A stretch of 64,000 nt of DNA from Thermoleophilia bacterium (GCA_040776965.1 JAXGZO010000001.1:593419-657418), one strand, 5' to 3'. Counted from the stretch's first letter, positions 13,962-55,800 are shown. Notes: generated by a model not told the origin, from the letters alone. Made by a program: numbers and translations.

Positions 13962-14168
13962 CGGTTCAGCGGCTTAAAGGCGGGGGCGGGCGGCCGTAAG
14001 GCTTACCCGCCCTCGTCTTCGTTCGTCAGCGCGTGGCGCGCCCTTCTCTCGGCTTCCCCTCTTTCTTCTTCGCCCGGATGTTTAGCTGCTGGCCCCGCTG
14101 GCAATAAAGTTGATAGACTTAGACTCAAGTTTGTTGCTAACGACTGCGATCCGCGAAGGAGGATCCCT

Positions 14169-16076
14169 ATGGGCAAGGTAATCGGCATCGACTTGGGCAC
14201 GACCAACAGCGCGATGGCCGTGCTCGAAGGCGGCGAGCCGACCGTTATCCCCAACAGCGAGGGCGGGCGCACCACCCCGTCGGTGGTCGCCTTCTCGAAG
14301 AGCGGTGAGCGCCTCGTGGGGAGCGTCGCCCGTCGTCAGGCGGTCACGAACCCCGAGAACACCGTGTTCTCCATTAAGCGGTTCGTGGGCCGTAAGTACG
14401 GCGACGTCTCCGAGGAGATGACGATGGTGCCGTACCACGTGCAGAGCGGTCAGAACGGCGACGCCGTGGTCGAGATCGGTGGCTCCTCCTACACTCCGCC
14501 TGAGATCTCCGCGATGATCCTGCAGAAGCTCAAGCGCGACGCCGAGGACTACCTGGGCGAGAAGGTCACCGAGGCCGTCATTACGGTGCCGGCGTACTTT
14601 AACGACTCGCAGCGCCAGGCCACCAAAGACGCCGGCAAGATCGCCGGTCTCGAGGTTAAGCGCATTATCAACGAGCCTACGGCGGCCGCGCTCGCCTACG
14701 GCCTCGACAAAGAGCACGACCAGACGATCCTCGTGTTCGACCTCGGCGGCGGTACCTTCGACGTCTCCATCCTCGACCTGGGCGACGGGGTCTTCGAGGT
14801 GCGTTCCACCAACGGCGACACGCACCTCGGCGGCGACAACTTCGACAAGGCCGTCGTGGACTGGATGGTCGCCGAGTTCAAGCAGGCCCAGGGTATCGAC
14901 CTGCGCGGCGACAAGATGGCGCTGCAGCGGCTCTACGAGTCGGCCGAGAAGGCCAAGATCGAGCTCTCCACGACGCAGACCAGCGCGATCAACTTGCCGT
15001 TTATCTCTGCCGACGAGAACGGGCCGAAGCACCTCGACCTCACCCTCAGCCGGGCGAAGTTCGACGAGCTCACGAGCGATCTGCTCGAGCGCATCGTCGC
15101 GCCGGTGCAGAACGCGATCAAGGACGCGGGCCTGAGCGCGAGCGAGATCCACCACGTGATCCTCGTGGGCGGTATGACCCGCGTGCCGGCCGTGCAGGAG
15201 AAGGTCAAGGCGCTCATCGGCAAGGAGCCGCACAAGGGCGTCAACCCGGATGAGGTCGTCGCTGTGGGCGCCTCGATCCAGGGTGGTGTGCTCGCCGGCG
15301 AGGTCAAGGATGTGCTGCTGCTCGACGTGACGCCGCTCAGCCTCGGCATCGAGACCAAGGGTAACGTGTTCACCAAGCTCATCGAGCGCAACACGACGAT
15401 CCCGACCAAGAAGAGCGAGGTCTTCAGCACCGCCGACGACAACCAGACGAGCGTCGAGATCCACGTGCTGCAGGGTGAGCGCGAGATGGCCCGCTACAAC
15501 AAGACGCTCGGCAAGTTCCAGCTGGTCGGCATCCCGCCGGCGCCGCGCGGCATACCGCAGATCGAGGTCGCCTTCGACATCGACGCCAACGGGATTGTGC
15601 ACGTGAGCGCCAAGGATCTCGGCACCGGCAACGAGCAGAAGATCACCATTACGGCCTCGAGCGGCCTCAGCGAGCAGGACATAGAGCGCATGATGAAGGA
15701 CGCCGAGGCGCACGCCGAGGAAGACCGGCAGGCGCGTGAGCTCGCCGACGTGCGCAACAACGCCGAGAACCTGCTCTACAGCACCGAGAAGTCGCTGAAG
15801 GACACGGGTGACAAGATCGACGCCTCCACCAAGGGTGAGATCGAGGCCGCCGCAGCCGAGCTGCGCACGGCGCTCGAGGGCACCGACCAGGAGGCCATCA
15901 AGGCCAAGACCGAGGCGCTGATGCAGGCTTCGCACAAGCTCGCCGAGGCCGTGTACCAGCAGGCGCAGCAGCAGACCGCTCCCACCGGCGACGGTGCGGG
16001 GAGCCAGGCTCCCTCGGACGACGAGAACGTCGAAGACGGCGACTACGAAGTCATCGACGGCGACGAGAAGAAGTAA
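14169..16076 (+). CDS. dnaK: Molecular chaperone DnaK (Hsp70)
   Basis: Starts [14 protein letters not shown] with full Hsp70 signatures. RBS GAAGGAGGA at 14153-14161. Confidence 0.98.
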
Positions 16077-16106
16077 AAGCGGGTGCGTACACCTAAGGAG
16101 GACAGC

Positions 16107-16562
16107 ATGGGCATCATTCGATGGGATCCATTCCGTGAGCTGACGCAGACCCAGAACCAGTTCAGCAGGCTCGTGGACCAGGTGTGGGGCGGTCGTCAGG
16201 AGAGCTGGGTGCCGCCGGTCGACGTGTTCGACAAAAAAGAGGCCGTCGTGCTTAAGGCGGAGCTGCCCGGCATGGACGCTGACGATATCGCGATCGAGGT
16301 CGAGGACAACGTGCTCACGATCAAGGGTGAGCGCCGCTTCGAGGAGGTCGTAGAGGACGAGCGGTACTACCGCGTGGAGCGGAGGTTCGGTAGCTTCCAG
16401 CGCAGCCTCGCCCTGCCGCAGGGCGTGGATGCTGAAGGCATCGTCGCCGGCTACGACGACGGTATCTTGACGATCACGGTGCCGAAGCTGGAGGAAGAGA
16501 AGCCGAAGCGTATTGAGGTGAAGGCCAAGAAGGCGGTCGACGCCGAGAAGAACGACGACTGA
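16107..16562 (+). CDS. Hsp20/alpha-crystallin small heat-shock protein
   Basis: ATG at 16107 follows AAGGAGG (16095-16101). Alpha-crystallin domain present (VDVFDKKEAVVLKAELPG...LTIKGER...GILTITVPK). Confidence 0.92.
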   Translation: MGIIRWDPFRELTQTQNQFSRLVDQVWGGRQESWVPPVDVFDKKEAVVLKAELPGMDADDIAIEVEDNVLTIKGERRFEEVVEDERYYRVERRFGSFQRSLALPQGVDAEGIVAGYDDGILTITVPKLEEEKPKRIEVKAKKAVDAEKNDD

Positions 16563-16644: not shown

Positions 16645-17244
16645 ATGACGGAGAAAAAGAAGACGAAGCACGCCGGCGCGAAGCGTACGATCCCCGTCGA
16701 TCGCGTCGGCGAGGAGACGATCGACGTTCAGCAGCCCGCGCAGGAGGGCGCTGCGGCGTCTGTGCAGGAGTCCGCATCCGCCGTGGCCGATGAACTCGCC
16801 GCAGCGCTGGCGCAACGCGACGAGTACCTCGATCACCTACGGCGTCTCCAGGCCGAGTTCGACAACTACCGCAAGCGTGTGCGGCGTGAGGCGGAGGAGC
16901 TTCGCCTGCAGGCGGCGGAGGCGGTTATGGAGTCATTACTCCCCGTGCTGGACAACATGGCACGCGCCCTGAACGCCGCCGCGAGCTGCGAGGACGAGCA
17001 GCTGCTCGACGGCCTCAACCTCGTGGCGGGGCAGTTTAAAGCAGCCCTCCAGGGGAGCGGCCTTGAGGAGGTCGCCGTGGAGGCCGGAACGCCCTTCGAC
17101 CCGACCTTTCACGAGGCGATTACCACACAGACATCCGACGAGTATGAGGAGGATGCGGTGCTCCAGGTGCTGGAACGTGGCTACCTGCTGAACGGTAGGT
17201 TGCTGCGTCCGGCCAAGGTCATCGTAGTGAGTGGGGATGGCTGA
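16645..17244 (+). CDS. grpE: Nucleotide exchange factor GrpE
   Basis: GrpE coiled-coil and C-terminal beta-domain (FDPxxHEA...LxxGY). RBS AGGAGA upstream. Confidence 0.93.
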
Positions 17245-18373
17245 TTTTTACGACATACTCGGCGTCTCCAAGGGCGCCTCTCAGGACGAGATCAAGAAGG
17301 CGTTTCGTAAGCTCGCCCGCGAGTACCACCCCGACAAAAACCCGGGCAACGCGACGGCTGAGGAGAAGTTCAAAGAGGTTAACCAAGCCTACGAGACGCT
17401 CTCCAACCCGGAGAAGCGCAAGCAGTACGACGAGTTCAGCCGCCTCGGCGGCTTCGCCGGTGCCGGCGGCTACCGACCGGGCACCGGAGGCTACCAGGGC
17501 CAGGGTTTCGACCCACGGATGTTCGGAGAGGGCGCTCAGCAGTTCGACATGGGCGACCTCGGCGATATTCTCGGCAACCTCTTCGGAGGGGGGGCGGCCG
17601 GAGCGGGCGGCGGCCGCCGTAGGACGGCCGCCGAGCGCGGAGCCGATCTCCACGTGGAGATCACGGTCTCCTTCGATGATTCGCTCCACGGCGTGCAGGT
17701 GAAGATCCCGGTGGAGAAGCCCGATACGTGCGAGGGCTGCAGAGGCACCGGCGCTCGTCCGGGCACCGGGCCCACCGTCTGTTCGGCATGCGGCGGTCGT
17801 GGGAGCGTGGTGCAAAACCAGGGCTTCTTCGCGCTCTCGCAGCCCTGCTCTCGCTGCCACGGTCAGGGCACGGTGATTGAGCAGCCCTGCGCCGTCTGCG
17901 GCGGCAGCGGGTTGCAGCAGCGCACGCGGCGCTACGCGGTCAAAATTCCGGCCGGGGTGAAGGACGGCACCAAGATCCGCATTAAGGGGAAGGGTGAGGC
18001 CGGCCGCCGCGGCGGAGCGGCCGGCGACCTCTTCGTGCGGGTCAAGGTGGAGGAGGACGACGTCTTTGTACGTCGTGACGACGACGTGATCCTCACCCTC
18101 TCCATCACGGTCGCGGAGGCGGCGCTCGGCACGAGCATCAAGATCCCCACGCCGGGCGGCGGGCGGGTCTCGCTCAAGATCCCCGCCGGGAGCCAGGAGG
18201 GCCGTACGCTCCGCATTCGCTCCAAGGGCGCGCCCAAGCTTCGCGGCGGCCACGGCGATCTTTTGGTCCGGCTGCACGTGTGCGTGCCGGAGAAGCTCAC
18301 GAAGGAGCAAAAGCGGCTCTTCGAGCAGTTGGGGAGCACGCTGACGAGCCCGCGTGAGACGGACCTCAGCTGA
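17237..18373 (+). CDS. dnaJ: Chaperone DnaJ (J-domain, G/F region, 4x CxxCxGxG zinc fingers)
   Basis: [10 protein letters not shown]...HPDKN J-domain and four CxxCxGxG repeats. ATG at 17237 overlaps the grpE stop by 8 nt. Confidence 0.95.
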
Positions 18374-18396
18374 GCTGAGATGAGGAGGTGACGGCG

Positions 18397-18807
18397 ATGC
18401 TGTTCGACGACTTCGACGCCCCGCTCTTCATGATCTCGGTGGCCGCGGATCTCGCGGGTATGCATCCGCAGACGCTGCGGATGTACGAGCGTCGTGGCCT
18501 GGTAAGCCCGGGCCGCACCGCCAAAAACACACGGCGCTACTCCCGCCGCGACGTGGAGCTCCTGCGGCGCATCCAGGAGCTCACCGACCTCGGCCTCAAC
18601 CTCGCCGGCGTTAAGCGAGTGCTGGCGATGGAGGAACGGGTCGCCGAGCTCGAGCTCGAGCTCGAGCGCTTGCACGGCCTCCTCGCTGCGGCGGAGGTCG
18701 AGATGCGTCGCGAGGTCGAGCGGGTTGAGAGCGCACACCGCTTCGAGCTCGTGCCGGTCGCGCGGACGCAGATCGTTCCACTGGGTCGCCGTCGCAGGCG
18801 CATGTGA
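18397..18807 (+). CDS. hspR: Heat-shock transcriptional repressor HspR (MerR family)
   Basis: MerR-type HTH (ISVAADLAGMHPQTLRMYERRGL) and a C-terminal coiled coil. ATG at 18397 is 8 nt after AGGAGG. Lies downstream of dnaJ as in actinobacterial dnaK operons. Confidence 0.9.
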   Translation: MLFDDFDAPLFMISVAADLAGMHPQTLRMYERRGLVSPGRTAKNTRRYSRRDVELLRRIQELTDLGLNLAGVKRVLAMEERVAELELELERLHGLLAAAEVEMRREVERVESAHRFELVPVARTQIVPLGRRRRRM

Positions 18808-18808
18808 C

Positions 18809-18842
18809 GGCGGGGAGGCCGCCGAGAGGTTGCCTCCCCGCC
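18809..18842 (+). terminator. Perfect 11-bp GC hairpin (GGCGGGGAGGC...GCCTCCCCGCC) immediately after the hspR stop; weak U-tract
   Basis: Inverted repeat read directly from the sequence. It lies 32 nt upstream of the clpC ATG. Confidence 0.4.
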
Positions 18843-18874
18843 CGGCGACCTTCTTCTCGAGAGGTAGGTGGCTG

Positions 18875-21307
18875 ATGGACGTCAGTAAATTCTCAGAACG
18901 AGCCCGTGAGGCGATTGAGACGGCACAAGGGGTCGTTCGCCGTGGCTCCGGTAACGTACTCGGCACCGAACACCTGCTCATCGGCGTGCTCTCGCTGCCG
19001 GGTGGCGTGGTGGAGCAGCTCTTTAACCTCCTCGGCGTCGACAAAGGCGCGACCATGACGCGAGTCGAGCGGATCGCGCAGAACCAGCCGGCCGGCACCG
19101 GCGGCCCCTCCGGCCCCTCGGAGATGCTCTACATGACGCCGCGCGCCAAGGTTGCCATCGACAAGGCTCTTGAAGAGGCGCAGAAGCTCGGCGACGAGTT
19201 TATCGGCACCGAGCACCTCCTCCTCGGCATCTTCCTCGAAGGAGAGGGGCCCGGGAGCGCCGTGCTGCGCGACGTGGGCGTGACGGAGGAGGCGCTGCGG
19301 CGGGCACTCGCCGAGGTGCGCTCCTCCGGCGTGGACTACGAGGCCACCGCGAGCGGCGAGAGTATGCTCAAAAAGTACACGCGTGACCTCACCACCATGG
19401 CGCGCGAGGGCAAGCTCGACCCGGTGATCGGCCGAGACGATGAGGTTAAACGCGTTATTCAAATACTCAGCCGCCGCACCAAAAACAACCCCGTCCTGAT
19501 CGGCGAGCCCGGGGTGGGCAAGACCGCGATCGCCGACGGCCTCGCGCAGAAGATCGTGAACGGCGACGTGCCGGAGATCCTCCGCGGCAGGCGTGTGCTC
19601 GCGCTCGACCTCGCCGGCATGCTCGCCGGTGCCAAGTACCGCGGTGAGTTCGAAGAGCGCCTCAAGGGCGCCCTGGACGAGATCATGCGCGCAAACGATG
19701 TCGTGCTCTTTATCGATGAGCTCCACACAGTGGTGGGGGCGGGCGCCGCCGAAGGTGCGATCGACGCCTCCAACATGATGAAGCCGATGTTGGCGCGCGG
19801 TGAGCTGCAGTGTATCGGCGCCACCACGCTCAGCGAGTACCGCCGCTACATCGAGAAGGACGCCGCACTGGAGCGGCGGTTCCAGCCCGTGCTCGTGGGG
19901 CAGCCCACGGTGGAGGAGACGATCGCGATCCTCGAGGGGCTCCGCGAGAACTACGAGGCGCACCACAAGGTGAGGATCACGGACGAGGCGCTCCGCCAGG
20001 CGGCGTACCTCTCCGACCGCTACATCAGCGACCGCTTCTTGCCGGACAAGGCGATCGACCTTCTCGACGAGGCGGCGAGTAAGTTGCGGATAGAGGCGAC
20101 GATGCTGCCGCCGGCGCTCCGCGAGAAGGAGCGTGAGCTTCAAGAGCTCGCGCGCGAGGGTGCCGCTGCGGTGCAGGCGCAGGACTACGAGCGCGCCGCC
20201 CAGCTTAAAGAGCAGACCGATGCCATCCAGGAGGCCTTCGTGAAGGAGAAGGACGCCTGGCTGGCCGACAAGGGCATCGCCGACGCCACCGTCGGTGCCG
20301 ACGACATCGCGGAGCTGGTGAGTGAGTGGACGAGTATCCCCGTGCAGCGCATGCTGCAAGGTGAGGCCGAGAAGCTCCTCACGATGGAGGAGGATCTTCA
20401 TAGACGGGTGATCGGCCAGAACCGAGCGGTCGAGGCCGTCTCGGAGGCCGTTCGCCGCGCGCGTGTCGGGCTCAAGGATCCCAAGCGGCCGATCGGTTCC
20501 TTCCTCTTCTTGGGGCCGACCGGTGTGGGTAAGACCGAGTTGGCCCGCGCGCTCGCCGAGTTCCTCTTCGACGACGAGAGCGCGCTGATCCGTCTGGATA
20601 TGGGCGAGTACATGGAGAAGCACTCGGTCTCGCGCATGGTAGGGGCCCCGCCCGGCTACGTCGGCTTTGAGGAGGGCGGCCAGCTCACCGAGGCGGTTCG
20701 TCGTCGCCCCTACAGCATCGTGCTCTTCGACGAGATCGAGAAGGCGCACCCCGACGTCTTTAACACGCTCCTTCAGATACTGGACGACGGACGCCTTACC
20801 GACGGCAAGGGCCGCACCGTCGACTTTAAAAACACCGTGCTGATCATGACGAGTAACGTTGGGAGCGGCGAGATCAAGAAGAGCCAGCTGGGGTTCACCG
20901 GCTCCTGCGAGACCGCCTCAGGTGAAGAGCTTGAGCGACGGTTGCTCGCCGAGCTGCGTCGCTGTTTTCGCCCCGAGTTTCTCAATCGGATCGACGAGAT
21001 CATCGTCTTCGATTCGCTCAGTGAGGAGGAACTCTCGCAGATCATCGACATCCTCCTCGGGAGCCTGCGCACGCTCGTGGAGGAGCGCGGCATGAAGCTC
21101 GAAGTAAGCGCCGCCGCGAAGGCGTTTATCGCTGCGGAGGGTTATGATGCGGAGTACGGGGCTCGTCCGCTAAGGCGAGCGCTCCAACGGCTCCTCGAGA
21201 ATCCGCTCTCGAGCGCCCTGTTACGCGGTGAGTTTTGCGCCGGCGACACGGTTGTCGTTGGGGTTGACGATGGGGGAGAGTCCCTCACGCTTGCGGTGGG
21301 GCGCTAA
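18875..21307 (+). CDS. clpC: Clp/Hsp100 AAA+ chaperone, ClpC-type (two NBDs, UVR-like middle motif, LGF ClpP-docking loop)
   Basis: Start [13 protein letters not shown]... (ATG 18875); the ORF-track 5' extension is rejected. Has Walker A GEPGVGKT and GPTGVGKT, the middle motif [16 protein letters not shown] and the KSQLGFTG loop. About 810 aa. Confidence 0.9.
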
Positions 21308-21326
21308 CGATCGTAAGGAGGGTGCT

Positions 21327-21656
21327 GTGAATTTCGATGATGATGGCGGAACTTCGAGGGGGTTTGATGCCAGCAACGGCTTCAAGGAGCTCGTGATCGT
21401 CGCCTACCTCGACGATTTTAAGATTATCGGTACGGCGCACTTCGGTGTCGCCGGTCGGAGTAGTTCGCGGCGCTCCTCCGACTACATTCACGCGTTTCGC
21501 GACTCGAGGCTCACTCTCTCGCAGGTTCGCATCTACAACAGGGATACCCAAGAGCTCTACGAGGCAGCTCCCTTCGTGATCCTCAACCTCAACAAGGTGG
21601 ACTTTCTCTACGCGCGCGAAGATGGGGCGGCGGGAGAAGAGGGTTCGTTCGCCTAG
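21327..21656 (+). CDS. Hypothetical small protein
   Basis: GTG at 21327 is 6 nt after AAGGAGG, just after the clpC stop. No recognisable domain. Confidence 0.45.
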   Translation: MNFDDDGGTSRGFDASNGFKELVIVAYLDDFKIIGTAHFGVAGRSSSRRSSDYIHAFRDSRLTLSQVRIYNRDTQELYEAAPFVILNLNKVDFLYAREDGAAGEEGSFA

Positions 21657-21676: not shown

Positions 21677-22915
21677 TTAGGGCTGCGCCGGGTCGGGTTG
21701 CGTCGTCCACCCCTTCTCTCCCTCAATACGCAACAAGAAGACGGGGATGAGGAGGGCTGCAAAGTACAGGGCGAGCAATACGGTGAACAAGGCGGTATAG
21801 GAGCCGGTATGGGCGAGTACATATGAGCTCAGCTGGTTGCCGAAGAGCCCCGCCATCGCCCAGGCGGTGAGCGAGAGCCCGTGGATCTTGCTGATGTTCT
21901 CCATACCGAAGCAATCAGACAAAAGAGTGGGGAGATTGCTAAAGCCTCCACCGTAGGTGGAGTTAATAGCGCAGAGAAGCAGTACTACGATAAAGGCATT
22001 GCCGATAGTTACACTATCCGTGGCGAGTGCGAGGAGGAGCGAGGACACCGAGAGCAGGAGCATAAAGCTATAGATGCTGCTTCGCTTCTTTAATCTGTCT
22101 GATATAACCGAGTAAAAGAACCGTCCACTAGAGTTGAATATAGCTGTTATTGAAGAAAGAGATCCTATGGCAACTATCGATAGTCCGATGTGTTTCATGA
22201 GATCTTTTTCTTGAGATATAAGAGCTAGTCCGCAGCTGATGTTTAAGAAAAGAATAAACCAAACCGCAATAAAATTGCGATTCTTTGCAAGCGAAAAGAA
22301 AGACACCTTGCTTTTCTCATGCTCCTCAGTATAGCCATCTGGCTTTTTTATGAGAAAAACAGCGGTCATCATGAGTAGGAAATAAGTAGCCGACAAGATA
22401 AAAAAGGTACTTATAATTCCAAAGTTTTTGTTTAAGACGACGATGGCCGGACTCGCAATCACCTTCGCGAGTCCGAAGCCCGTGATGGCGAGCCCCGTCG
22501 CTAGCCCCTTATTTTTTGAAAACCAGAGCATCAGTGTTTTAACGGGGGAGATATAGCCAATGCCAAGGCCTACCCCCATGAGGACACCGTAGCTTAGATA
22601 CACACCAGGTAAGCTTTCAAAGAGAAGAGAAACGCCCGTTAAGGCCATTCCAAGAGAGAAGCACGCTGCGGCGATAAGCGACGAGCGCTTTACGTTTTTC
22701 TCAACGAATCCGCCGGAGAAAGCGGCGGATATGCCTAAAAAGAAAATCGCTAGGCTAAAGGCCCACTCCACATCGGCAACCCCACGCCCGATGCTCTCCG
22801 CTATATCGAACTTCAGCAGCGACCAACAGTACACGCTGCCGATGCTGCAATGAATTAAAAGTGCAGGTGCGGCACCGTGCTTTATGGCGGGCGCATACTT
22901 TTTAAGGAAGTTCAT
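21677..22915 (-). CDS. MFS transporter (oxalate/formate antiporter-like family)
   Basis: Twelve-TM MFS topology. Conserved loop GxLxDRxGxR-like (VISDRLKKRS). The central ~400 nt is markedly AT-rich. Confidence 0.85.
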   Translation of the reverse strand: MNFLKKYAPAIKHGAAPALLIHCSIGSVYCWSLLKFDIAESIGRGVADVEWAFSLAIFFLGISAAFSGGFVEKNVKRSSLIAAACFSLGMALTGVSLLFESLPGVYLSYGVLMGVGLGIGYISPVKTLMLWFSKNKGLATGLAITGFGLAKVIASPAIVVLNKNFGIISTFFILSATYFLLMMTAVFLIKKPDGYTEEHEKSKVSFFSLAKNRNFIAVWFILFLNISCGLALISQEKDLMKHIGLSIVAIGSLSSITAIFNSSGRFFYSVISDRLKKRSSIYSFMLLLSVSSLLLALATDSVTIGNAFIVVLLLCAINSTYGGGFSNLPTLLSDCFGMENISKIHGLSLTAWAMAGLFGNQLSSYVLAHTGSYTALFTVLLALYFAALLIPVFLLRIEGEKGWTTQPDPAQP

Positions 22916-23189
22916 TAGTGCCGCTTCTTTCCTATGGTTTGCTCCGCCAAGGGCGAGAGATTGCGCCCGTATGGAGCTCGGCGATCAGGGGCTCTCTCTT
23001 TTTTTCGGCAGAACGACGGCGGCAATTAAGGAATTTTTCGCTCGCAGTGCGCGTTTCGGCCCGTCGGGCGCGGAGGCGCCCAGAAGGAGCTCGCTCGGCG
23101 TGCGAAAAAAGGCGAGCTTGAGACAGGTCGCCCGAAGAGCTGCTCGGGTCTCCCTGATGGGGTGTGCTCGTTTGCTCGAGTTCCGCGCG

Positions 23190-24401
23190 TTACACGGTGC
23201 GCGGCACTCGCTCGTTCAAGAGCTTGGCCTTGACCTCCTGGACGGTGACGCCCTCGAGGTTGCGCCGGGCTAAGAGGGCGGTCGCTCCGCCGCCGCCGAC
23301 GGCGAGATACGAGTCGGCGTCGATGCGCCGAAGGGCGCGGATGCTCCCCCCAAACCCCGCCACTTCCTCGCCGTAGGCGAACTCTCCGTTGGGGGCGCGG
23401 GTGAGGATGCGCGTCTCGCCGTTGGTAAAGGCGCCGCCCACCACGACCCATGAGTCCGCGTCGAGCGGCTGGATGCCGTTGACGTTGGCTCCGAAGCCCT
23501 CCACGGGCTGGCTGTAGCCGAAGCCCCCCTCGTCGTCTCGGGTGAGGATGCACGTGGCGCCCCTCGCCCCCGCGACGATCCACGAGGAGTCGTTGATCGC
23601 GTGGATCGTGCTGATGGAGGAGCTGGGGAATCCCTCTACGCGCTCGCCGTAGGAGGAGTTGCCACGGGGGTCGCGGGTGAAGATGCGCGTCTCGCCGCCG
23701 TCGCCGGCGACGATCGTGGAGGTCGCGTCGACCTTCTCGCTCGCTCGGATGTTGCCGCCGAAGCCCTCGATGTTCTCCCGGTAGATAAAGCTGCTCTGCG
23801 CGTACCTCGTTAAAATCCTCGTCTCGCCGTTGTGCCCGGCGATAAAAAACGAGTCGTTGTTGATGCGTTCTACGGTCGTGATGGCGGAGGTGAAGCCCTC
23901 GATGGCCTCTCCGTAGGCGAAGCCGTCCTCCTCCGAGGAGGTGAGGAGGCGTGTCTCGCCGTCGTAGCCGGCGACGATCCACGAATGGTCGTCGACGGCG
24001 TGCACCGCGCTGATGCTGTTGGTGAACCCCTTTGCCTCGTCGCCGTAGAGGAAGATGCTTGCGTCGAGGCGCGTGAGTACGCGGGTTTCGCCGTAGTCCC
24101 CAAACGCTATCCACGAGGTGTGCCCGAGGGGCTCGACGAGAGTGATGCCGCTCGTGAAACCCTCGACGGCGTGTACGTAGACCAAGTCGCCGAACCCGAG
24201 CTCCTCCGCGAGCTCTCGCTTGTGCTCAAGGAGGAGCTTGTCGAGCTCGAGCTCCGCGTCCTTTACCTTGTCTCTAAACTCCGACGCGGTGACCTCATCC
24301 GGGAGTTTGCCGTTTTCGTTAACGTACTTCTCTATCGTCTTGAGCTCTTTGAGAAAATCGTTGTAGAGCTTGAGCTGTTGTTTTAATCTGCGAGATTTCA
24401 T
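23190..24401 (-). CDS. Repeat protein: N-terminal coiled coil plus seven tandem ~42-45-aa repeats (YGExxEGFxxxI...D.SW.VAG..GETRILTR); possible 7-bladed beta-propeller. No family assigned.
   Basis: Repeats read directly from the translation. ATG at 24401 lies 1 nt after the vWA gene stop. Confidence 0.7.
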   Translation of the reverse strand: MKSRRLKQQLKLYNDFLKELKTIEKYVNENGKLPDEVTASEFRDKVKDAELELDKLLLEHKRELAEELGFGDLVYVHAVEGFTSGITLVEPLGHTSWIAFGDYGETRVLTRLDASIFLYGDEAKGFTNSISAVHAVDDHSWIVAGYDGETRLLTSSEEDGFAYGEAIEGFTSAITTVERINNDSFFIAGHNGETRILTRYAQSSFIYRENIEGFGGNIRASEKVDATSTIVAGDGGETRIFTRDPRGNSSYGERVEGFPSSSISTIHAINDSSWIVAGARGATCILTRDDEGGFGYSQPVEGFGANVNGIQPLDADSWVVVGGAFTNGETRILTRAPNGEFAYGEEVAGFGGSIRALRRIDADSYLAVGGGGATALLARRNLEGVTVQEVKAKLLNERVPRTV

Positions 24402-24402
24402 A

Positions 24403-26481
24403 TTACCTGGTTACCGTGTCGCTTAATTTGCGTTGCAAATTTTGAATAAGAAGATCTGGTAGTTTGCTTACTTCGCTTCCAATGATAATGCCGTTATCGC
24501 CCCATACGTCTTTAAAGACTTTTCCGTCGGTATCGTCTCCAACTAAAAACGCAACTAATTCGATGTGCTGCTCTCGTAGATGGTTTACGTAGAGTTTCAC
24601 CTCATCGATATCGAAGGGTTCTCCGTCGGTGATCTCAAAGATGATCTTCTTCATCTTTCCCTTTTTGAGGTCGACCTGCCGCTTTGAGTCGTAGGTGAGG
24701 TCGTTCAGGAGGTGCTTGAGTACCCCCGCGTTCTCGGTAATGCCCTCGCGGGCGTCTAAAAAGACGATGGATTGAATGATCTCCGACATGGACTGCGCGC
24801 TCGTCTCGTCTTTTGAGAACCTCTTGATCTGCCGGTAGTCGTTGCCGAAGACGAACATCTCGGTGATGGCTCGCAGCGAGAAGCCGTCGCGCATGAGCTC
24901 CTCGTTGAAATCCCTAACGGAGGTGAGGAGCAGCGTCGCCGCGAGCTTTGCCTGGTGGATCCTGTCGCCGTTCATCGACCCGGAGTTGTCGATCACCAGC
25001 GATATCTCGATGGACTCGGGCACCTTGATCTTCTCGCAGTCCACCGCGCGCCGGTCGTAGACGTTGAGCTTGGGCTGCTTGCCCTCCAGGATCTGCTCGC
25101 GGTACTCGGGGTACTGCTGGATGAACTCGTAGACGTTGAGCCTGCCCCTGGGCTGCCGGGTGTGCACGGTGAGCGCGCTGTCGTAGTACTCGCCGATCAG
25201 CCTGCTCCAAAAGTCGACCATCTGGAGGCGCTCGCCTTTAATGCCCTGCGCGATCTCGTCGAACTTTTGGCGCACCTCCGGGGTGATGCTGAAGTCGCGG
25301 TCGAAGGCGCGCTGCCGCTCGAGGCGGTCGCGCTCCGCTCGCTCCGCCCGGGTCATCTCGTCCTCTCGCTGTTTTTTGAGGATCTCCTCGATAAGCTGCT
25401 CATCCTCCTCGGGGGAGTGGGTGAGGGGCGAGTCTTGCTGGGCGAATCGCGTGAAGAACTCGTCGATGAGCTCATCGATGTCGTAGGCTGCGTCGTCTTC
25501 TGGGGGCTGAACTCCGCCGGCCTCGTTGCCGTGCCCCTCGGTCTGCTCGTCGCTGCGCTCCTCGCCCAGGCCCTCTTCCTCCTGGCTCCTGCGGCCCTCC
25601 TGCGTGTGGGTCTCGCTCCTCGCCTCGTCGTCACCGCTCGCCTCGCCGGTCTGTGGCCACTCCGGCAGGAGGCGCTGGAGGTCCTCCAGTAGGAGCTCCA
25701 AAAACGTGGGCAGGATGCGCTCGCCGATGATCTGGTAACGGAGGGCCGGGTCGATAGGCCCCAGGGTCGGTTTGAGTTTTTTGTTGAGGATGTCGACGAT
25801 GGTGCGCCCAAACCAGATCTTTTGGCGGAGCGCCTCCGTCACGGGCTCGGAGATGACCGATCGCGCGCCGTCGGGGACCATCTCGTCGCGCACCAAGGGG
25901 CGCACGAGCTGCGTGTACAGCGGGCGCTCGGTGAAGTCGCTCTCGCCTCCGCCGAGCTTGAGGTAGATATCGCGGACCTGCTCCCTGCCGGAGGGCTGGC
26001 TGTAGTAGCCGGCCTTTCGCGCCACGGTGGTGTTGAGGTAGAGCTCGTCGATGGCGGCGTAGAGCTGGGCGATGACGGTGGAGAGGTGGCGCCGGAGGGA
26101 GGAGCTGCTGAGGCCGTTTCGCTCCTCCTCGCTGAAGTTCTTCAGCACCACCTCGCCGGCGAGGATCTTCTTTGTAAACTCCCTCGCCGCGCGCTCGATG
26201 AAGGCGAACTTCGCGCTGTGCGCGGCCGGGTTGTGGCGCACGTCGGTGAAGTGCGAGAGCTCGCGAAAGAGCATCCACCTGAACTGATCCTTGGTGATCT
26301 GGTTCTCGGCAAGCCAGCGCAGGGGGATGCGGACGGTGTGGTCGCCGTGGTGGTAGGAGAACGCGTCGCCCTCGGGGTCGAGGGCGTACTTAAGGCTGCG
26401 GTCGCCGGCGAAGACGTCGAGCAGCGGGCGGCTTTTTTTGAGCCACTCGGAGGCGATGCTCTCGTAGCGGTCGAGCGGCAT
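24403..26481 (-). CDS. Large vWA-domain protein (C-terminal von Willebrand A domain with DxSxS MIDAS; ~480-aa unassigned N-terminal region with acidic linker)
   Basis: VIDNSGSMNGDRI... MIDAS motif. ATG at 26481 overlaps the AAA gene stop (TAATG); the alternative GTG at 26520 is rejected. Confidence 0.8.
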   Translation of the reverse strand: MPLDRYESIASEWLKKSRPLLDVFAGDRSLKYALDPEGDAFSYHHGDHTVRIPLRWLAENQITKDQFRWMLFRELSHFTDVRHNPAAHSAKFAFIERAAREFTKKILAGEVVLKNFSEEERNGLSSSSLRRHLSTVIAQLYAAIDELYLNTTVARKAGYYSQPSGREQVRDIYLKLGGGESDFTERPLYTQLVRPLVRDEMVPDGARSVISEPVTEALRQKIWFGRTIVDILNKKLKPTLGPIDPALRYQIIGERILPTFLELLLEDLQRLLPEWPQTGEASGDDEARSETHTQEGRRSQEEEGLGEERSDEQTEGHGNEAGGVQPPEDDAAYDIDELIDEFFTRFAQQDSPLTHSPEEDEQLIEEILKKQREDEMTRAERAERDRLERQRAFDRDFSITPEVRQKFDEIAQGIKGERLQMVDFWSRLIGEYYDSALTVHTRQPRGRLNVYEFIQQYPEYREQILEGKQPKLNVYDRRAVDCEKIKVPESIEISLVIDNSGSMNGDRIHQAKLAATLLLTSVRDFNEELMRDGFSLRAITEMFVFGNDYRQIKRFSKDETSAQSMSEIIQSIVFLDAREGITENAGVLKHLLNDLTYDSKRQVDLKKGKMKKIIFEITDGEPFDIDEVKLYVNHLREQHIELVAFLVGDDTDGKVFKDVWGDNGIIIGSEVSKLPDLLIQNLQRKLSDTVTR

Positions 26482-28877
26482 TACGCTATCAGGCTCTCCA
26501 GGGAGGAGACGAGGGAGCACAGCTCATTGAGCTTCTGCTCGAGCGCGTCGAACTCCTCCTCGGTGATCTCGTCCTTAAAGGTGGCCTCGAGGGCCTCGTA
26601 GATCTGCGGGTACGAGCTCCGCCTCTCGGGTTCGCCGTACAGGAGGTCGATCATCTGCTTTAGGCTGAAGAACTCGCTTCGCTGTTTTTTGTAGGTGTAC
26701 GCCTTGGTTCGGATGTCGTCGAGCGTGAGCGACCGGTGCTCCACGCTCTCCTTGTGCGTGTCGATCCTCCAGCCGTCGAGTTCGCTGAAGAGCCCAACGA
26801 GTTTGGCCTGCTCCGCGATGAAGTGCTGATCTTTAACGTACTCGCCGCTGATGGACCCGAGGAACTCATCCCACAGCGCCATGCTGATATCGCGCTTGGA
26901 GCCCTCGTCCCACGCCTCGATCACGCGCAGCACGTGGCGGACCGAGAGCACGTAGGAGTCGAGGGAGGGCTTCTCGCCGGAGGAGTCGCCGGCCACGTCG
27001 GCGTTTACCGCGCTCTCCTCCCACTTGCCGGAGAAGACGTCTTGGGTGATGCGCGCCAGCTGGCAGAGCCTGAAGATGTCGTCGATGGCGCCCTGCGGGA
27101 GCTCAAGGTTGCCGCGCTCGTCGGCGAGTTTCGTCATGACGATGTAGAAGAGCTCGTTGAGGCGCGGATCCCGCTGGTTACCGAGGTTGCCCTCTTTGCT
27201 CTGCGTCACGTAGTCGTAGGCCTTCTCGCTCAGCCGCGAGAGGTAGGCGGCGTTCAGCGAGTTAACCCCGGCGTAGGCCATCTTGGAGCTGCTGTTGAGG
27301 TTGCCGGTCATGATGATCGAGAAGCCATTCGCTATGGTGACCGCGTCGTCACCCGGGATGATCGCCTTCTCGCCCGGCCGTTTGGTGAGGATGTCGTTCA
27401 TCGACGCCAGTACCTCGGGCATGATCAGGTTGATCTCGTCGATCACGATCGGCTTGCCCTCGGTGATCGCCTTGTAGAGGGCCTTGCGCACCTTGGCAGA
27501 CTCCGTGGCGATCTGCGTTTGGTTGTTGCCGGCTACCGCGGATTCGATCACCGCCCTTTGGGCGGTGAGCTCGTCCGCGTCGGTGACGGTGGGGTGGTTG
27601 TGCCGCCAGAGCGCGAACTCGGCGTCGACCTTGTCGCTGATCTCGTGGGGGAGGGGCGCGCCGATGGCCTTAACGACGAGGGCGGTCTCCGTGTAGAGGT
27701 CCTCCGTCGTCGTCGTCCTGGAGCCGACCACCTCGTAATACTTGATCTTGTCGATGACCTCACGGTCGCCTCTTTTGAGGCCCCGGAGGTAGTGCTGGTA
27801 CAGCGCGTCGTACTGCGCGAGGAGGGCTTCGCCGCTCGCGTTTGGGTGCTCCGCCAAAAACGCTCGGAGGTCCTCCTCGATGTGCAGGTCGACCATGTGG
27901 TGCAGCGACGCCGTGCGGGCGATCTCGCTCTTGCCGGCGCCCAGGTGGCCGGTTAAAAAGACGGGGTGGCCGTTCTCCATCTTGTCGAGGAGCCACTCCT
28001 TGGTCTGCGCCACGGAGGGCACATCGACGATCTCGCCCCTCCTGTGGTGGGCGATCTGCTCGAGGTAGTCGTCGGACTTAATAAGGTAGTAAGCCTCCGG
28101 GTTTTTGGCCTCGAGCTCTCGGAGAGCCCGTTTCTTCTCGATGAGCGTGCGGAGGTGGGCGTCGCGAAGCACCTGGTGCTCATCGCGTCGGTCGGTAAAG
28201 AGGTGCCGGAGGACCCCGTACGAGATGCGCTCCAGCCTTATCGACGTTTTGAGGTCGTTGTACTCCCTCAGCGCGATGTCGTGCTCCGATCGCTTGAGGA
28301 ACCTCAAAAAGTACTCGGTCTCGAGGTCGATCTCGCCCCGCAGACTCTCTCTGTCGGCGCGAAGCCGGGAGAGCTCGTGGTGCAGCTCGTCGCTCTTCTC
28401 GCGGACGACGGCGTCGATGGAGCGCCGCAGAAAACCGCCGATGCTCGCCGTCGCGCTCGCCCTCGCGAGTGTGTCGAGGAGCGAGAGGTGTTTGCGGATC
28501 TGCGCGTCGATAGCCAGGAGCTTGTCGAGCACGTCTTCTTTGTAGTTCAGGTGGTTCGTGATGCGCTCGAGGTCCTGGCAGGTGAGTACGTCCAGGAGCC
28601 GTGACTCCTCCTCGGGGGCCGAGAGGGGCTCGTGGTCGTCGCGGTCGGCGATCTCCCGCAGGTGGAGCGCCTGGAGGGCCTCTCGGGCGTTGGCGATCGC
28701 CCTCGCGTCGTCGCGGAGCTTCGCCGCCCGCAGGGCGTCGATGGCCGCGCCGCGTTGGTCTTCGTCGCGCTCTCTCGCGCGCAGTATGCGGGCGGCCAGC
28801 GCCGACCGCTCCTCTCTCGAGCCGGACGGAGCGCGGTTCGAGGTTGTGTGTGCTGGTGTTCTCTCCACGGTGGTCAT
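26481..28877 (-). CDS. MoxR-like AAA+ ATPase, unusually large (798 aa) with N-terminal coiled coil and an insert between the Walker motifs
   Basis: Walker A FLTGHLGAGKSEIART. Walker B/sensor PIVIDEINLIMPEVLASMNDIL (DEINxxxP as in MoxR/CbbQ/NorQ). Confidence 0.8.
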   Translation of the reverse strand: MTTVERTPAHTTSNRAPSGSREERSALAARILRARERDEDQRGAAIDALRAAKLRDDARAIANAREALQALHLREIADRDDHEPLSAPEEESRLLDVLTCQDLERITNHLNYKEDVLDKLLAIDAQIRKHLSLLDTLARASATASIGGFLRRSIDAVVREKSDELHHELSRLRADRESLRGEIDLETEYFLRFLKRSEHDIALREYNDLKTSIRLERISYGVLRHLFTDRRDEHQVLRDAHLRTLIEKKRALRELEAKNPEAYYLIKSDDYLEQIAHHRRGEIVDVPSVAQTKEWLLDKMENGHPVFLTGHLGAGKSEIARTASLHHMVDLHIEEDLRAFLAEHPNASGEALLAQYDALYQHYLRGLKRGDREVIDKIKYYEVVGSRTTTTEDLYTETALVVKAIGAPLPHEISDKVDAEFALWRHNHPTVTDADELTAQRAVIESAVAGNNQTQIATESAKVRKALYKAITEGKPIVIDEINLIMPEVLASMNDILTKRPGEKAIIPGDDAVTIANGFSIIMTGNLNSSSKMAYAGVNSLNAAYLSRLSEKAYDYVTQSKEGNLGNQRDPRLNELFYIVMTKLADERGNLELPQGAIDDIFRLCQLARITQDVFSGKWEESAVNADVAGDSSGEKPSLDSYVLSVRHVLRVIEAWDEGSKRDISMALWDEFLGSISGEYVKDQHFIAEQAKLVGLFSELDGWRIDTHKESVEHRSLTLDDIRTKAYTYKKQRSEFFSLKQMIDLLYGEPERRSSYPQIYEALEATFKDEITEEEFDALEQKLNELCSLVSSLESLIA

Positions 28878-29011
28878 ACTTTCGTCTCTAACAGAGGGTG
28901 ACCAGATGTTACCAGCATGGCCGCCGCCCGCGCTCGCGTGCAGGCGCGGCGGCCCGCCCGCGCGAGCGTGTGCTAGACTCTCCGTTATCCATCGAGCTAG
29001 GAGTTCTTCGC

Positions 29012-34449: not shown

Positions 34450-34525
34450 TGGAGCCGACGCGCGGAATCGAACCGCGGACCCCATCATTACGAGTGATGT
34501 GCTCTGCCAGCTGAGCTACGTCGGC
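34450..34525 (-). tRNA. tRNA-Thr (anticodon CGT)
   Basis: The reverse complement gives gccgacgtagctcagctggcagagca...cuCGUaa...ggttcgattcc...CCA. Confidence 0.88.
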
Positions 34526-34532
34526 TTAAAGA

Positions 34533-34608
34533 TGGAGCCCGGTCGCGGATTCGAACCGCGGACCCCCTCCTTACCATGGAGGTGCTCTGCCTGCTGAGCT
34601 AACCGGGC
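34533..34608 (-). tRNA. tRNA-Thr (anticodon GGT)
   Basis: The reverse complement gives gcccggttagctcag...anticodon loop auGGUaa...ggttcgaatcc...CCA. Confidence 0.88.
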
Positions 34609-34612
34609 ACTC

Positions 34613-34697
34613 TGGTGGGGGAGCTAGGATTCGAACCTAGGTAGGCTGCGCCAACGGATTTACAGTCCGCCCCCTTTAGCCACTCGGGCACTCCCCC
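34613..34697 (-). tRNA. tRNA-Tyr (anticodon GTA), long variable arm
   Basis: The reverse complement gives gggggagtgcccgagtggctaaaggg...cuGUAaa...long variable arm...ggttcgaatcc...CCA (85 nt). Confidence 0.88.
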
Positions 34698-34824
34698 GGA
34701 GCGAGGCAAGATGCTAAAGCAAAGCGGACGTGTTTTCAACCGCCCTCACGCGAGCCTTTTCGAGCGGGTCCCCCGGCTGCGATTTGAGCGAGCGGAAGCT
34801 GTGTGGTACCTTATGCCTCCGAGT

Positions 34825-34901
34825 GGCGGCGTAGCTCAGCTGGTTAGAGCAGCGGAATCATAATCCGCGTGTCCGGGGTTCGAGTCCCTGCGCCGCTACC
34901 A
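34825..34901 (+). tRNA. tRNA with CAT anticodon (elongator Met or Ile2/lysidine type; not initiator-like)
   Basis: ggcggcgtagctcagctggttagagca...auCAUaa...ggttcgagtcc...CCA. It lacks the three consecutive G-C pairs in the anticodon stem that mark initiator tRNAs. Confidence 0.85.
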
Positions 34902-55771: not shown

Positions 55772-55800
55772 CCCGCCTCGGGGCGTGCTACACTCGGCCG

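Follow-up and report, generated by a model that had tools for sequence, protein, structure and literature searches.

A three-gene AAA+/vWA/propeller operon of a Thermoleophilia bacterium and its relatives: a candidate recognition machine with an interchangeable third subunit

The locus and its three proteins

The window analysed here is a stretch of 64,000 nt from a Thermoleophilia bacterium (GCA_040776965.1 JAXGZO010000001.1:593419-657418), and positions 23190-28877 of it are occupied by three intact open reading frames (ORFs) on the minus strand (Table 1), which lie exactly where the original prediction had placed them. The coupling that had been proposed for the three genes is present at both junctions: the stop codon of gene 1 (TAA, 26483-26481) shares bases with the start codon of gene 2 (ATG, 26481-26479) to give TAATG, and a single T separates the TAA of gene 2 (24405-24403) from the ATG of gene 3 (24401-24399). 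The GC3 of the trio (0.85-0.89) is host-like and equal to that of the host housekeeping genes, and an identical copy of the trio sequence is found in an independent assembly. The MFS gene does follow the operon, as had been noted, but it does not form part of it, because its GC3 is 0.59; nor is it related to the MFS gene that lies close to the nearest relative. The trio is surrounded by housekeeping genes (dnaJ-hspR-clpB, surE, ligA) and does not lie in a defence island. None of the three proteins matched any family of PADLOC-DB 2.0 at E<=1, and no recognisable effector was seen in the window copy. There is no reverse transcriptase among the genes adjoining the trio, and no template/variable repeat pair in positions 23000-29000.

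Table 1. Coordinates of the genes and protein features of the operon within the window
Feature	Residues (aa)	Position	Strand	Basis or conservation
Gene 1, 798-aa AAA+ ATPase of the AAA_5 (midasin/CobS-like) type		26481..28877	minus	ORF, Pfam, family profile
Gene 1, variable helical N-region	1-285	28023-28877	minus	
Gene 1, AAA module with two inserts	286-660	26898-28022	minus	
Gene 1, Walker A, GHLGAGKS	310-317	27927..27950	minus	G310, G313, G315, K316 invariant in 50 family members
Gene 1, Walker B, VIDEIN	478-483	27429..27446	minus	D480, E481 invariant in 50 family members
Gene 1, sensor-1 region MTGN and candidate arginine finger R548 (AAYLSRL)	523-526 (MTGN)	27234..27311	minus	T524, N526, R548 invariant in 50 members
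Gene 1, candidate sensor-2 motif, SVRH	645-648	26934..26945	minus	S645, R647 invariant in 50 members
Gene 1, conserved C-terminal extension	661-798		minus	
Gene 2, 692 aa (from ATG): family-specific N-domain, D/E-rich linker, helical middle region, C-terminal vWA		24403..26481	minus	
Gene 2, N-domain	1-270	25672..26481	minus	
Gene 2, RELSHFTD in N-domain	73-80	26242-26265	minus	
Gene 2, acidic linker	271-345	25447..25671	minus	32% Asp+Glu
Gene 2, vWA domain with complete MIDAS		24406..25005	minus	Pfam VWA 3.4e-9
Gene 3, predicted binder, 403 aa		23190..24401	minus	Repeat HMM, AF2, Foldseek
Gene 3, N-terminal two-helix hairpin (predicted)	1-67	24201-24401	minus	
Gene 3, seven predicted blades of ~44 aa	74-384	23250-24182	minus	
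Gene 3, short conserved tail after the blades			minus	

Gene 1 matches Pfam AAA_5 (PF07728) with 31.6 bits (gathering cut-off 22; 2e-7), and so do 48 of 50 family members. Its Walker motifs lie about 160 residues apart, and VIDEIN opens a DEINL...VL..LN..L stretch that aligns with the AAA modules of midasin. All five AAA+ elements can be assigned, the roles of sensor 1 and of the arginine finger being those we presume from general AAA+ knowledge, and SVRH being the likely sensor-2 motif. Judged by these motifs, the catalytic apparatus of this AAA_5 ATPase is intact. The N-terminal ~280 residues, which are helix-like by composition only, are the least conserved part of the family. The original prediction had called the protein MoxR-like. 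It is indeed a large ATPase with inserts, of the AAA_5 type, but it is not MoxR proper. Firstly, AAA_3 is absent from the Pfam matches of the window protein at E<=1, and also from the 25 most frequent of the 29 families matched by the 50 members (E<=0.01). Secondly, when the PDB was searched with the family profile (A5), only midasin was matched strongly (1e-29, in six stretches corresponding to all six modules), followed weakly by CobS (5e-4), and no RavA, MoxR, CbbQ or NorQ chain appeared at E<=10. The lack of AAA_3 and of a RavA/MoxR structure match sets it apart from the RavA/MoxR type, and profile comparison places gene 1 in the midasin/CobS branch of AAA_5.

In gene 2, the C-terminal vWA/MIDAS domain, the acidic linker and the unrecognisable N-domain are all as described originally. 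The Pfam VWA match (37.6 bits, cut-off 23.8) spans residues 493-660, and the five MIDAS positions, D498-x-S500-x-S502 (DNSGSM, residues 498-503), T582 and D619, are invariant in 16 diverse family members. The vWA profile also matches TRAP and integrin I domains, and is thus generic, not specifically midasin-like. Along its whole length, gene 2 shares 42% identity with the homologue in locus L001, in which the acidic linker is a low-complexity segment of variable length. The N-domain contains HExxH[FYL]xD in 28 of 64 relatives, and these 28 read LDDIYVN where the window protein has IDELYLN (aa 144-150). Near the motif, the predicted topology is a helix, three strands and the motif helix. These alignments identify the N-domain as a conserved family domain with an apparently ancestral HExxH that has degenerated in the window. 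The window copy does not carry the zinc-binding/catalytic motif, its first His being replaced by Arg (R73-E-L-S-H77), and since it reads RELSH, any peptidase activity has probably been lost.

The seven tandem repeats reported in gene 3 are real: each scores 49-65 bits against a hidden Markov model built from the other six (leave-one-out). Their mean pairwise identity is 40%, and TRF detected no tandem repeat at the DNA level. The suspected propeller fold was recovered, with moderate confidence, in an AF2 single-sequence model (pLDDT 72, pTM 0.66, ~28 strands), for which the top Foldseek matches were all 7-bladed WD40 propellers (E 1e-11 to 1e-8, TM 0.6-0.78), including beta-TrCP, ARPC1, WDR41 and Cia1. 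The Pfam WD40 match (E 0.036, 15.1 bits) is under the cut-off of 27, so that gene 3 is not assigned to this sequence family, and the best match in a PDB profile search was RACK1 (E 0.095). Gene 3 is soluble, its N-terminus is charged and helical, and no signal peptide was found. It is accordingly modelled as a cytoplasmic protein in which a helical hairpin carries a WD40-like propeller of seven blades.

The family and its interchangeable third gene

Far from being an orphan, the trio belongs by sequence similarity to a previously unnamed, three-part bacterial family with hundreds of members; 636 related ATPase cluster representatives were retrieved in a full HMMER scan. The family occurs in Patescibacteria, Bacillota and a few Actinomycetota, and it is frequent among the reduced genomes of Patescibacteria. 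In the ~80 loci inspected, from Patescibacteria/Saccharibacteria, Bacillota and Atopobiaceae, the ATPase mostly lies beside the same vWA protein, the architecture of gene 2 adjoining it in about 63-69 of 83 loci. The subclade of the window is extremely rare, with two sequences known, and the sole relative with >50% identity lies on an unrelated low-GC metagenome contig.

The third gene is an interchangeable binder module, which is replaced, multiplied, hypermutated and sometimes fused to the ATPase. Propeller-type partners are present in 58 loci, and 64 of 76 matches lie <=100 bp from the ATPase or vWA gene. In Saccharibacteria and in L001, a single locus holds several propeller paralogues, the homologues of gene 3 in L001 having 3, 5 and 7 repeats, and the ATPase and the propeller are fused in P0022, P0023, P0047 and P0034. 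In some Patescibacteria, a diversity-generating retroelement (DGR) targets the third gene and diversifies the C-terminal domain of its product. In two Patescibacteria loci (L065 and L067), DGR cassettes flank the vWA and ATPase genes; their reverse transcriptase matches RVT_1 at 2e-15, and 23/25 and 22/26 of the mismatches between the template and variable repeats (TR/VR) fall at TR adenines. In at least one further representative (P0088), the ATPase is fused to a domain that matches the C-terminal (variable-repeat) region of DGR targets. The N-terminal hairpins of propeller-type and DGR-type partners align with each other (hhalign 73%, P 3e-5; control 0.2%), and this hairpin is probably common to both types. 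LRR-like and beta-repeat proteins, called by inspection, are other types of third gene in deep Patescibacteria loci.

In 36 loci of Bacillota and Atopobiaceae, the ATPase gene lies directly downstream, on the same strand, of genes for a TetR protein and an MCRA/oleate hydratase (PF06100, match 2.7e-210), in most of them at a distance of 15-120 bp. No enzyme gene recurs as a neighbour across the Patescibacteria loci.

A possible mechanism and its alternatives

We propose that the three genes encode a single machine of the ternary AAA+/vWA kind, an explanation to which, mechanism included, we give an even chance of being correct. The ATPase would form a ring, and the vWA protein would be its adaptor, the MIDAS ion gripping an acidic residue of the partner. 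The propeller would be the target-recognition subunit; its N-terminal hairpin would serve for docking, and it would present the client that it has bound. The hydrolysis of ATP would then pull on or remodel the binder-client complex, just as Rsa4 and Ytm1, both of them WD40 proteins, are pulled from pre-ribosomes by midasin. A mechanistic template for vWA-AAA pairs is available (PMC7159879). The ancestral N-domain of the vWA protein, with its HExxH, probably cleaved something; given that the first His is an Arg in the window, the copy studied here would most likely be a non-proteolytic remodeller or a sensor.

That the binders are interchangeable and diversified speaks for surveillance, or for a conflict-type recognition of targets that vary, and not for the maturation of one fixed enzyme. 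On the other hand, the linkage to oleate hydratase in 36 loci suggests that this clade at least may serve a fixed metabolic client. The absence of PADLOC matches, the housekeeping neighbours, the generic vWA domain and a partner extension that is not ubiquitin-like also speak against our reading. In its boldest form, which we regard as doubtful, the family, in Patescibacteria, Bacillota and a few Actinomycetota alike, would be an undescribed cytoplasmic recognition machine in which interchangeable binders (WD40-like propellers, LRR-like repeats or DGR-hypermutated domains) hand variable targets to a midasin-like AAA+/MIDAS motor, ancestrally with a zinc peptidase; it would be a bacterial analogue of targeting by substrate receptors and a split prokaryotic sister of the eukaryotic midasin-Rsa4/Ytm1 module.

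Dedicated maturation or activation chaperones of the AAA+/vWA type include CbbQ-CbbO (Rubisco), NorQ-NorD (NO reductase), CoxD-CoxE (CO dehydrogenase) and CobS-CobT (cobaltochelatase). The trio might likewise serve one enzyme, with the propeller as a fixed scaffold, and the position of oleate hydratase upstream of the ATPase, the rank of CobS as second-closest solved relative and the sub-threshold CobT_C match of gene 2 are in line with this. However, no oleate hydratase gene was found in the window, the Patescibacteria loci share no enzyme, CbbQ, NorQ and RavA gave no structure match, and the NCBIfam CobT match has an E of 0.91. Paralogue expansion, module swapping and DGR hypermutation are, moreover, hard to square with a single client, and we consider this explanation unlikely. 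It seems similarly improbable that the system is a substrate-receptor-directed protease, in which the binder recruits, the ATPase unfolds and the HExxH domain degrades, and of which the window copy, lacking the first His, would be an inactivated relic. This possibility is favoured by the strict retention of HExxH[FYL]xD and LDDIYVN in the 28 relatives at 21-49% identity, by a predicted motif topology that would be compatible with a zincin core, and by the top structural matches of gene 3, which are F-box WD40 substrate receptors.

We think it very unlikely that the window trio is what remains, in decay and without function, of a cassette acquired by horizontal transfer. The loss of the His, the location of the sole close relative on an unrelated contig and the foreign MFS gene next to the trio would fit such a history, but the ORFs are full-length, the stop-start coupling is kept, the catalytic residues of ATPase and MIDAS are intact, the GC3 is that of host housekeeping genes, and the same sequence occurs in an independent assembly. 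Finally, a bacterial counterpart of midasin, stripping a WD40 assembly factor from a maturing RNP or other large complex, is hardly credible: the matches of the ATPase profile are almost confined to midasin, of which they cover all six modules, there is a D/E-rich linker before the MIDAS and a WD40-like partner with an N-terminal extension, and the family is common in reduced genomes, but its distribution is patchy (the window subclade comprising two sequences), its binders are variable, multiplied and hypermutated, its vWA domain is not specifically midasin-like, and it shows no linkage to ribosomal or RNA genes.

Under the recognition-machine reading that we prefer, the third subunit is a plug-in binder which, being hypermutated by a retroelement in Patescibacteria, implies recognition of changing targets within the cell, and this could give a function to the hitherto unexplained DGR targets of Patescibacteria. 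Oleate hydratase is involved in tolerance to host fatty acids, and the clade linked to it provides a phenotype that can be tested in gut and skin anaerobes amenable to culture. Clades with and without HExxH constitute a natural experiment on the place of proteolysis in the mechanism.

Comparison with known systems

Known pairs of AAA+ and vWA proteins are either chaperones dedicated to enzyme maturation or the core of predicted conflict systems. The family adds a third, widespread and unnamed layout. The earlier view that the trio falls outside the described classes is supported in that no profile puts its proteins in CbbQO, NorQD or CoxDE. CobS-CobT is similar in that the ATPase has no solved relative besides midasin except CobS, and in that CobT also has a C-terminal vWA domain; however, gene 1 is more than twice the size of CobS, and no CobN-like partner could be made out in the genes inspected near the operon, its place being taken by a propeller. 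The gene 2 match to CobT_C (E 0.0013, 18.9 bits) stays under the cut-off of 21, and that to NCBIfam TIGR01651 (CobT) has an E of 0.91; with no adjoining CobN-like gene either, the trio lies outside CobS-CobT.

The MoxR-vWA ternary conflict systems (Kaur, Burroughs, Iyer, Aravind 2020, PMC7159879) combine a helix-2-insert-clade AAA+ protein, a vWA protein and a variable third component; repeat or superstructure-forming domains are prominent among them, and they include a beta-propeller class. The trio has the same three kinds of component, but it does not belong to that class: its vWA domain ends the protein, its propeller is a separate, soluble, 7-bladed protein, its P-loop reads GHLGAGKS, and the family differs in its hosts. 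No component of the size or type of VMAP, iSTAND or FtsH adjoins the trio. Diversification of MoxR-vWA ternary systems by DGRs is documented (PMC10907252). The DGR-linked system of 2017, as far as it is summarised there, resembles the Patescibacteria members found in DGR cassettes and the P0088 fusion, whereas the window binder is a propeller, with no reverse transcriptase among the genes next to the trio and no TR/VR pair in 23000-29000; the likeness between the families is one to the summary. A vWA protein and an ATPase of the MoxR type likewise occur together with a propeller of the WD40 class in the Esr epibiont-sensing pathway of the actinobacterium Schaalia (preprint PMC13622651). There the propeller, EsrA, is the "sensor"; it is a secreted protein borne on a filament of Ig-like repeats, and its partners are a kinase, a phosphatase, an FHA protein and a transglutaminase. 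Gene 3, in contrast, has no signal peptide, and none of these Esr partners adjoins the trio.

Among solved structures, the closest AAA_5 module is that of midasin/Rea1, the eukaryotic pre-60S remodeller, which shares the DEINL..VL..LN..L motif, a D/E-rich segment before the MIDAS and a 7-bladed WD40-like partner with an N-terminal extension. Gene 1 is not midasin itself, as it has a single AAA module in 798 aa, with the MIDAS on a separate 692-aa protein. There is one AAA module per chain instead of six fused ones, the MIDAS protein carries a large unrelated N-domain and a vWA domain without specific midasin character, and the extension of the partner, ubiquitin-like in midasin, is a helical hairpin in gene 3; the family is also bacterial, patchy and without a link to the ribosome. 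The ATPase is nonetheless nearer to midasin than to any bacterial MoxR with a solved structure, which bears on the origin of the eukaryotic midasin-WD40 system.

Organization, composition and surroundings of the operon

The original prediction proposed that three minus-strand genes of the window form an operon encoding a MoxR-like AAA+ protein, a vWA protein and a propeller protein. This finding is genuine and its description is accurate: the three open reading frames have the predicted coordinates, the stop codon of gene 1 and the start codon of gene 2 overlap as TAATG, and a single base lies between the stop codon of gene 2 and the ATG of gene 3. A scan for consensus promoters and terminators at the operon ends gave nothing useful.

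Features of the window and of related loci (L-numbers denote genomic loci with ATPase relatives)
Feature	Position	Strand	Remarks
Gene 1, ATPase, 798 aa	26481..28877	minus	ORF
Gene 2, vWA protein, 692 aa	24403..26481	minus	ORF
Gene 3, repeat protein, 403 aa	23190..24401	minus	ORF
MFS transporter	21677-22915	minus	best NCBIfam model L-lactate MFS, 2.3e-74, under family cut-off
Example of oleate hydratase context	L018:7028-9538		TetR and MCRA upstream of the trio genes
DGR regions interleaved with vWA and ATPase genes	L065:1-6000; L067:3000-10000		complete DGRs, two Patescibacteria genomes
Paralogous neighbors of ATPase and vWA genes	L083:12061-13257; L078:8518-9297; L069:6176-9305, 13835-16161		

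The GC dip at 22-26 kb could be taken as a sign that the trio was recently acquired by horizontal transfer. However, we rejected this explanation because the GC3 of the three genes (0.85-0.89) is host-like, being the same as that of the nearby dnaJ, hspR, clpB, surE and ligA genes; the dip is due to amino-acid composition and to the MFS gene. A protein identical to that encoded by gene 2 is present in an independent assembly, and the window copy is intact and adapted to its host.

The MFS transporter gene downstream of the trio was also rejected as a component of the system. Its GC3 is 0.59, versus 0.85-0.89 for the trio and 0.84-0.90 in the adjoining genes; furthermore, it is not related to the MFS gene found near locus L001, the closest relative of the operon, and it is not conserved in the other loci. 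Its GC3 suggests that it was recently inserted from a foreign source in the interval between clpB and the trio, outside the system. The interval between clpB and the MFS gene also contains a 142-aa open reading frame (21228-21656, plus strand) with an intermediate GC3 (0.72) and without Pfam match, which may be either a piece of the inserted segment or no gene.

The dnaJ-hspR(MerR)-clpB heat-shock cluster (17231-21307, plus strand) directly adjoins the trio region. Its arrangement and a GC content of 65-70% point to a probable actinobacterial host; the 90%-identity cluster of ClpB comprises the window sequence alone. The window also contains four tRNA genes on both strands inside 450 bp (34453-34898) and three more at 1270, 33056 and 41818; no rRNA genes were found in the 64 kb. 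A low-GC island (57346-61352, plus strand; GC 0.37-0.55) carries the genes for a PilZ plus HlyD-like membrane-fusion protein and for a GT2 glycosyltransferase of 907 aa that includes a pectate-lyase-like domain, and looks like a horizontally acquired module for c-di-GMP-controlled exopolysaccharide synthesis. Just upstream of it lies a rhomboid protease gene (55785-57173), whose product matches the B-box zinc finger below threshold (20.9 bits; cut-off 24.1).

Domains and relatives of the three proteins

None of the three proteins had a meaningful match in NCBIfam or PADLOC. In the case of gene 1, Pfam identifies an AAA_5 domain (31.6 bits; cut-off 22), but the match covers only Walker B and what follows it, since the Walker A sequence GHLGAGKS (aa 310-317) and VIDEIN (aa 478-483) lie about 160 residues apart. 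Walker A, Walker B, T524/N526, R548 and S645/R647 are invariant in an alignment of 50 family members, and the ATPase is presumably catalytically competent. AAA_5 is present in 48 of these 50 members; the Pfam matches reported for them do not include AAA_3 (MoxR proper). Profiles made from a two-sequence alignment found no match in PDB, but deeper family profiles did. Thus, with the family profile midasin alone was significant among all PDB sequences (4e-14), and with the profile from Walker B to sensor 2 all six midasin modules were matched (1e-29, a value inflated through summing over multiple modules), followed by CobS (5e-4). Nothing beyond midasin and CobS was found with the latter profile at E<=10; therefore RavA, CbbQ, NorQ and MoxR are all absent. 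The ranking is clear, and by sequence affinity the module falls within the midasin/CobS branch of AAA_5.

The protein encoded by gene 2 has a Pfam VWA domain (residues 493-660; 37.6 bits, cut-off 23.8), preceded by a linker (aa 271-345) that is 32% Asp plus Glu. The five MIDAS positions are invariant in the alignment of vWA proteins. The matches of the vWA profile are to generic vWA domains, such as TRAP (2e-9) and integrin I domains, and the profile shows no specific likeness to midasin or CobT. Searches of Pfam and PDB with the N-domain yielded no relative, and its alignment (64 relatives) splits sharply into two groups. HExxH[FYL]xD and YNxLDDIYVN are kept in 28 of the 64, namely all Patescibacteria, Dehalobacterium, L001 and some unclassified MAGs, and a sequence resembling xELAxYPDW is found instead in the other 36, from Bacillota and Atopobiaceae; HExxH was therefore rejected as a feature of the whole family. 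The window N-domain is closer to the HExxH group, yet it has RELSHFTD and IDELYLN in place of the motifs, the Arg of RELSH being encoded by CGC. Given this RELSH motif, we rejected the idea that the window copy is an active zinc peptidase; it has probably lost any former peptidase chemistry.

Pfam returned nothing significant for gene 3, and its sequence profiles remained below significance for WD40. Each of its seven repeats of about 44 aa reaches 49-65 bits when compared with an HMM made from the remaining six, and no tandem repeat is present at the DNA level; the blades are therefore old and diverged. In a single-sequence AF2 model (pLDDT 72, pTM 0.66), the protein starts with a hairpin of two helices, after which come about 28 strands, and the top Foldseek matches of this model in PDB are all 7-bladed WD40 propellers (beta-TrCP, ARPC1, WDR41, Cia1 and ATG16L1; E 1e-11 to 1e-8, TM 0.6-0.78). 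Furthermore, a Saccharibacteria homologue passes Pfam Reg_prop. Together, these results support the predicted propeller at the fold level, with moderate confidence.

A family with exchangeable binders

Word-indexed protein searches limited to 8000 candidates gave 2, 0 and 1 matches, with a single ATPase relative among the matches listed (P0002, 53% identical), on metagenome contig PDWI01009041, which is locus L001. This locus contains the ATPase, a small upstream single-repeat ORF, a vWA protein 42% identical to gene 2 over its full length, and three complete homologues of gene 3 (5, 7 and 3 repeats) plus a fourth that is truncated at the contig end, all of them stop-start coupled. By contrast, exhaustive HMMER scanning of 1.84 billion representatives with a two-sequence ATPase profile retrieved 636 proteins with E<=1e-3, of which 185 reached E<=1e-30, mainly of 600-830 aa. 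The ATPase relatives therefore form a genuine family, modest in size, into which ordinary MoxR proteins are not drawn. The trio is a rare member of this unnamed yet sizeable family. The scan of species-representative genomes yielded 80 loci, in Saccharibacteria, Nanosyncoccus and other Patescibacteria, Peptoniphilus, Anaerococcus, Urinicoccus, Lacrimispora, Hungatella, Lachnospiraceae, Erysipelotrichaceae, Atopobiaceae and a few other MAGs. The plasmid and phage collections searched gave no match, IMG/VR one weak partial match, and a metagenome scan nothing other than the L001 contig again.

We searched every ORF of the loci with HMMs derived from the window and L001 proteins. In 63-69 of 83 loci, the ATPase is accompanied by a vWA protein that shares the N-domain and has its vWA domain at the C-terminus; truncated contigs account for many of the remaining loci. 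An iterated gene 3-type profile identified 76 proteins in 58 loci, 64 of them no more than 100 bp away from the ATPase or vWA gene, with up to five paralogues per Saccharibacteria locus. Bacillota have the gene order ATPase-propeller-vWA, the window and some Saccharibacteria have ATPase-vWA-propeller, and deep Patescibacteria have vWA-x-ATPase. HMMs also revealed ATPase-propeller fusions (family representatives P0022, which is the L034 gene, and P0023 and P0047), and a further one, P0034, matches Pfam WD40_like (1e-7); these fusions argue that ATPase and propeller cooperate directly.

In two Patescibacteria loci, L065 and L067, targets of diversity-generating retroelements (DGRs) flank the vWA and ATPase genes. 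In these DGRs, two variable repeats lie next to a template repeat and a gene for a reverse transcriptase (Pfam RVT_1, 2e-15), and 23 of 25 and 22 of 26 mismatches between template and variable repeats fall at template adenines. The targets begin with a helical region that is probably related to the propeller hairpin by profile-profile comparison (hhalign probability 73%, P 3e-5, 57 columns; control 0.2%), and in P0088 the ATPase is fused to a domain matching their C-terminal, variable-repeat region. It has been reported that DGR targets in CPR bacteria have no recognizable domains (Roux et al., PMC8144416). At other deep Patescibacteria loci, neighbor proteins have a helical N-terminus followed by 23-residue LRR-like repeats (L083, L078) or by beta repeats of about 38 residues (five paralogues, L069), recognized by inspection only and not by Pfam. 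The ATPase family plausibly includes the proteins of Paul et al. (2017), judging from how Doré et al. cite them.

In 36 loci (within L012-L059), from Tissierellia, Lachnospiraceae, Erysipelotrichaceae and Atopobiaceae, genes for a TetR protein and an MCRA/oleate hydratase (PF06100, 2.7e-210) lie immediately upstream of the ATPase and co-oriented with the ATPase-propeller-vWA genes, the gap being 15-120 bp in most cases. Neither the window nor the Patescibacteria loci contain an oleate hydratase gene. For the Bacillota/Atopobiaceae clade, the strongest case for a dedicated client comes from this linkage.

Possible mechanism and relation to known systems

The most economical mechanism, to which we give an even chance, is that a ring ATPase and a MIDAS adaptor act on a recognition subunit and its bound cargo. 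The ATPase would form the ring, the vWA protein would be its MIDAS adaptor, and the motor would work on the recognition subunit and whatever that subunit holds. Several facts underlie this proposal: the midasin-type AAA module is catalytically intact, the MIDAS is invariant and sits on a flexible acidic tether, the ATPase and the vWA protein strictly co-occur, the binder can be fused to the ATPase, and the binder is replaced, multiplied and hypermutated. Midasin provides a precedent for such a mechanism. The general scheme for vWA-AAA pairs (PMC7159879) is the other template. Biologically, the machine may serve in surveillance or conflict, or it may direct proteolysis in the clade with HExxH or mature a client in the clade linked to oleate hydratase.

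The AAA+/vWA ternary theme is already known as a general kind; what is noteworthy here is the affinity to midasin, the plug-in and DGR-diversified binders, and the linkage to oleate hydratase. Kaur et al. defined four MoxR-vWA ternary classes (PMC7159879). The third protein of their propeller class is membrane-associated and contains TPRs, its P-loop is GxxxTAKS rather than GHLGAGKS, and its hosts are Bacteroidetes, Planctomycetes and Proteobacteria, unlike those of the trio family; the window trio departs from that class on each of these points. The Esr pathway of Schaalia comprises a secreted propeller carried on an Ig-repeat filament, a kinase and an FHA protein (PMC13622651), none of which occurs in the trio. 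Placement among CbbQO or NorQD systems, which the original prediction had considered, received no support from profiles, and neither did RavA-ViaA. The window neighbors are housekeeping genes, and there is therefore no defense-island signature. The nearest characterized relatives of the motor are CobS-CobT and midasin, and the trio belongs to neither: it lacks both a family-level match to CobT and a CobN partner, and it differs from midasin in that its AAA module is single and its MIDAS is carried by a separate protein.
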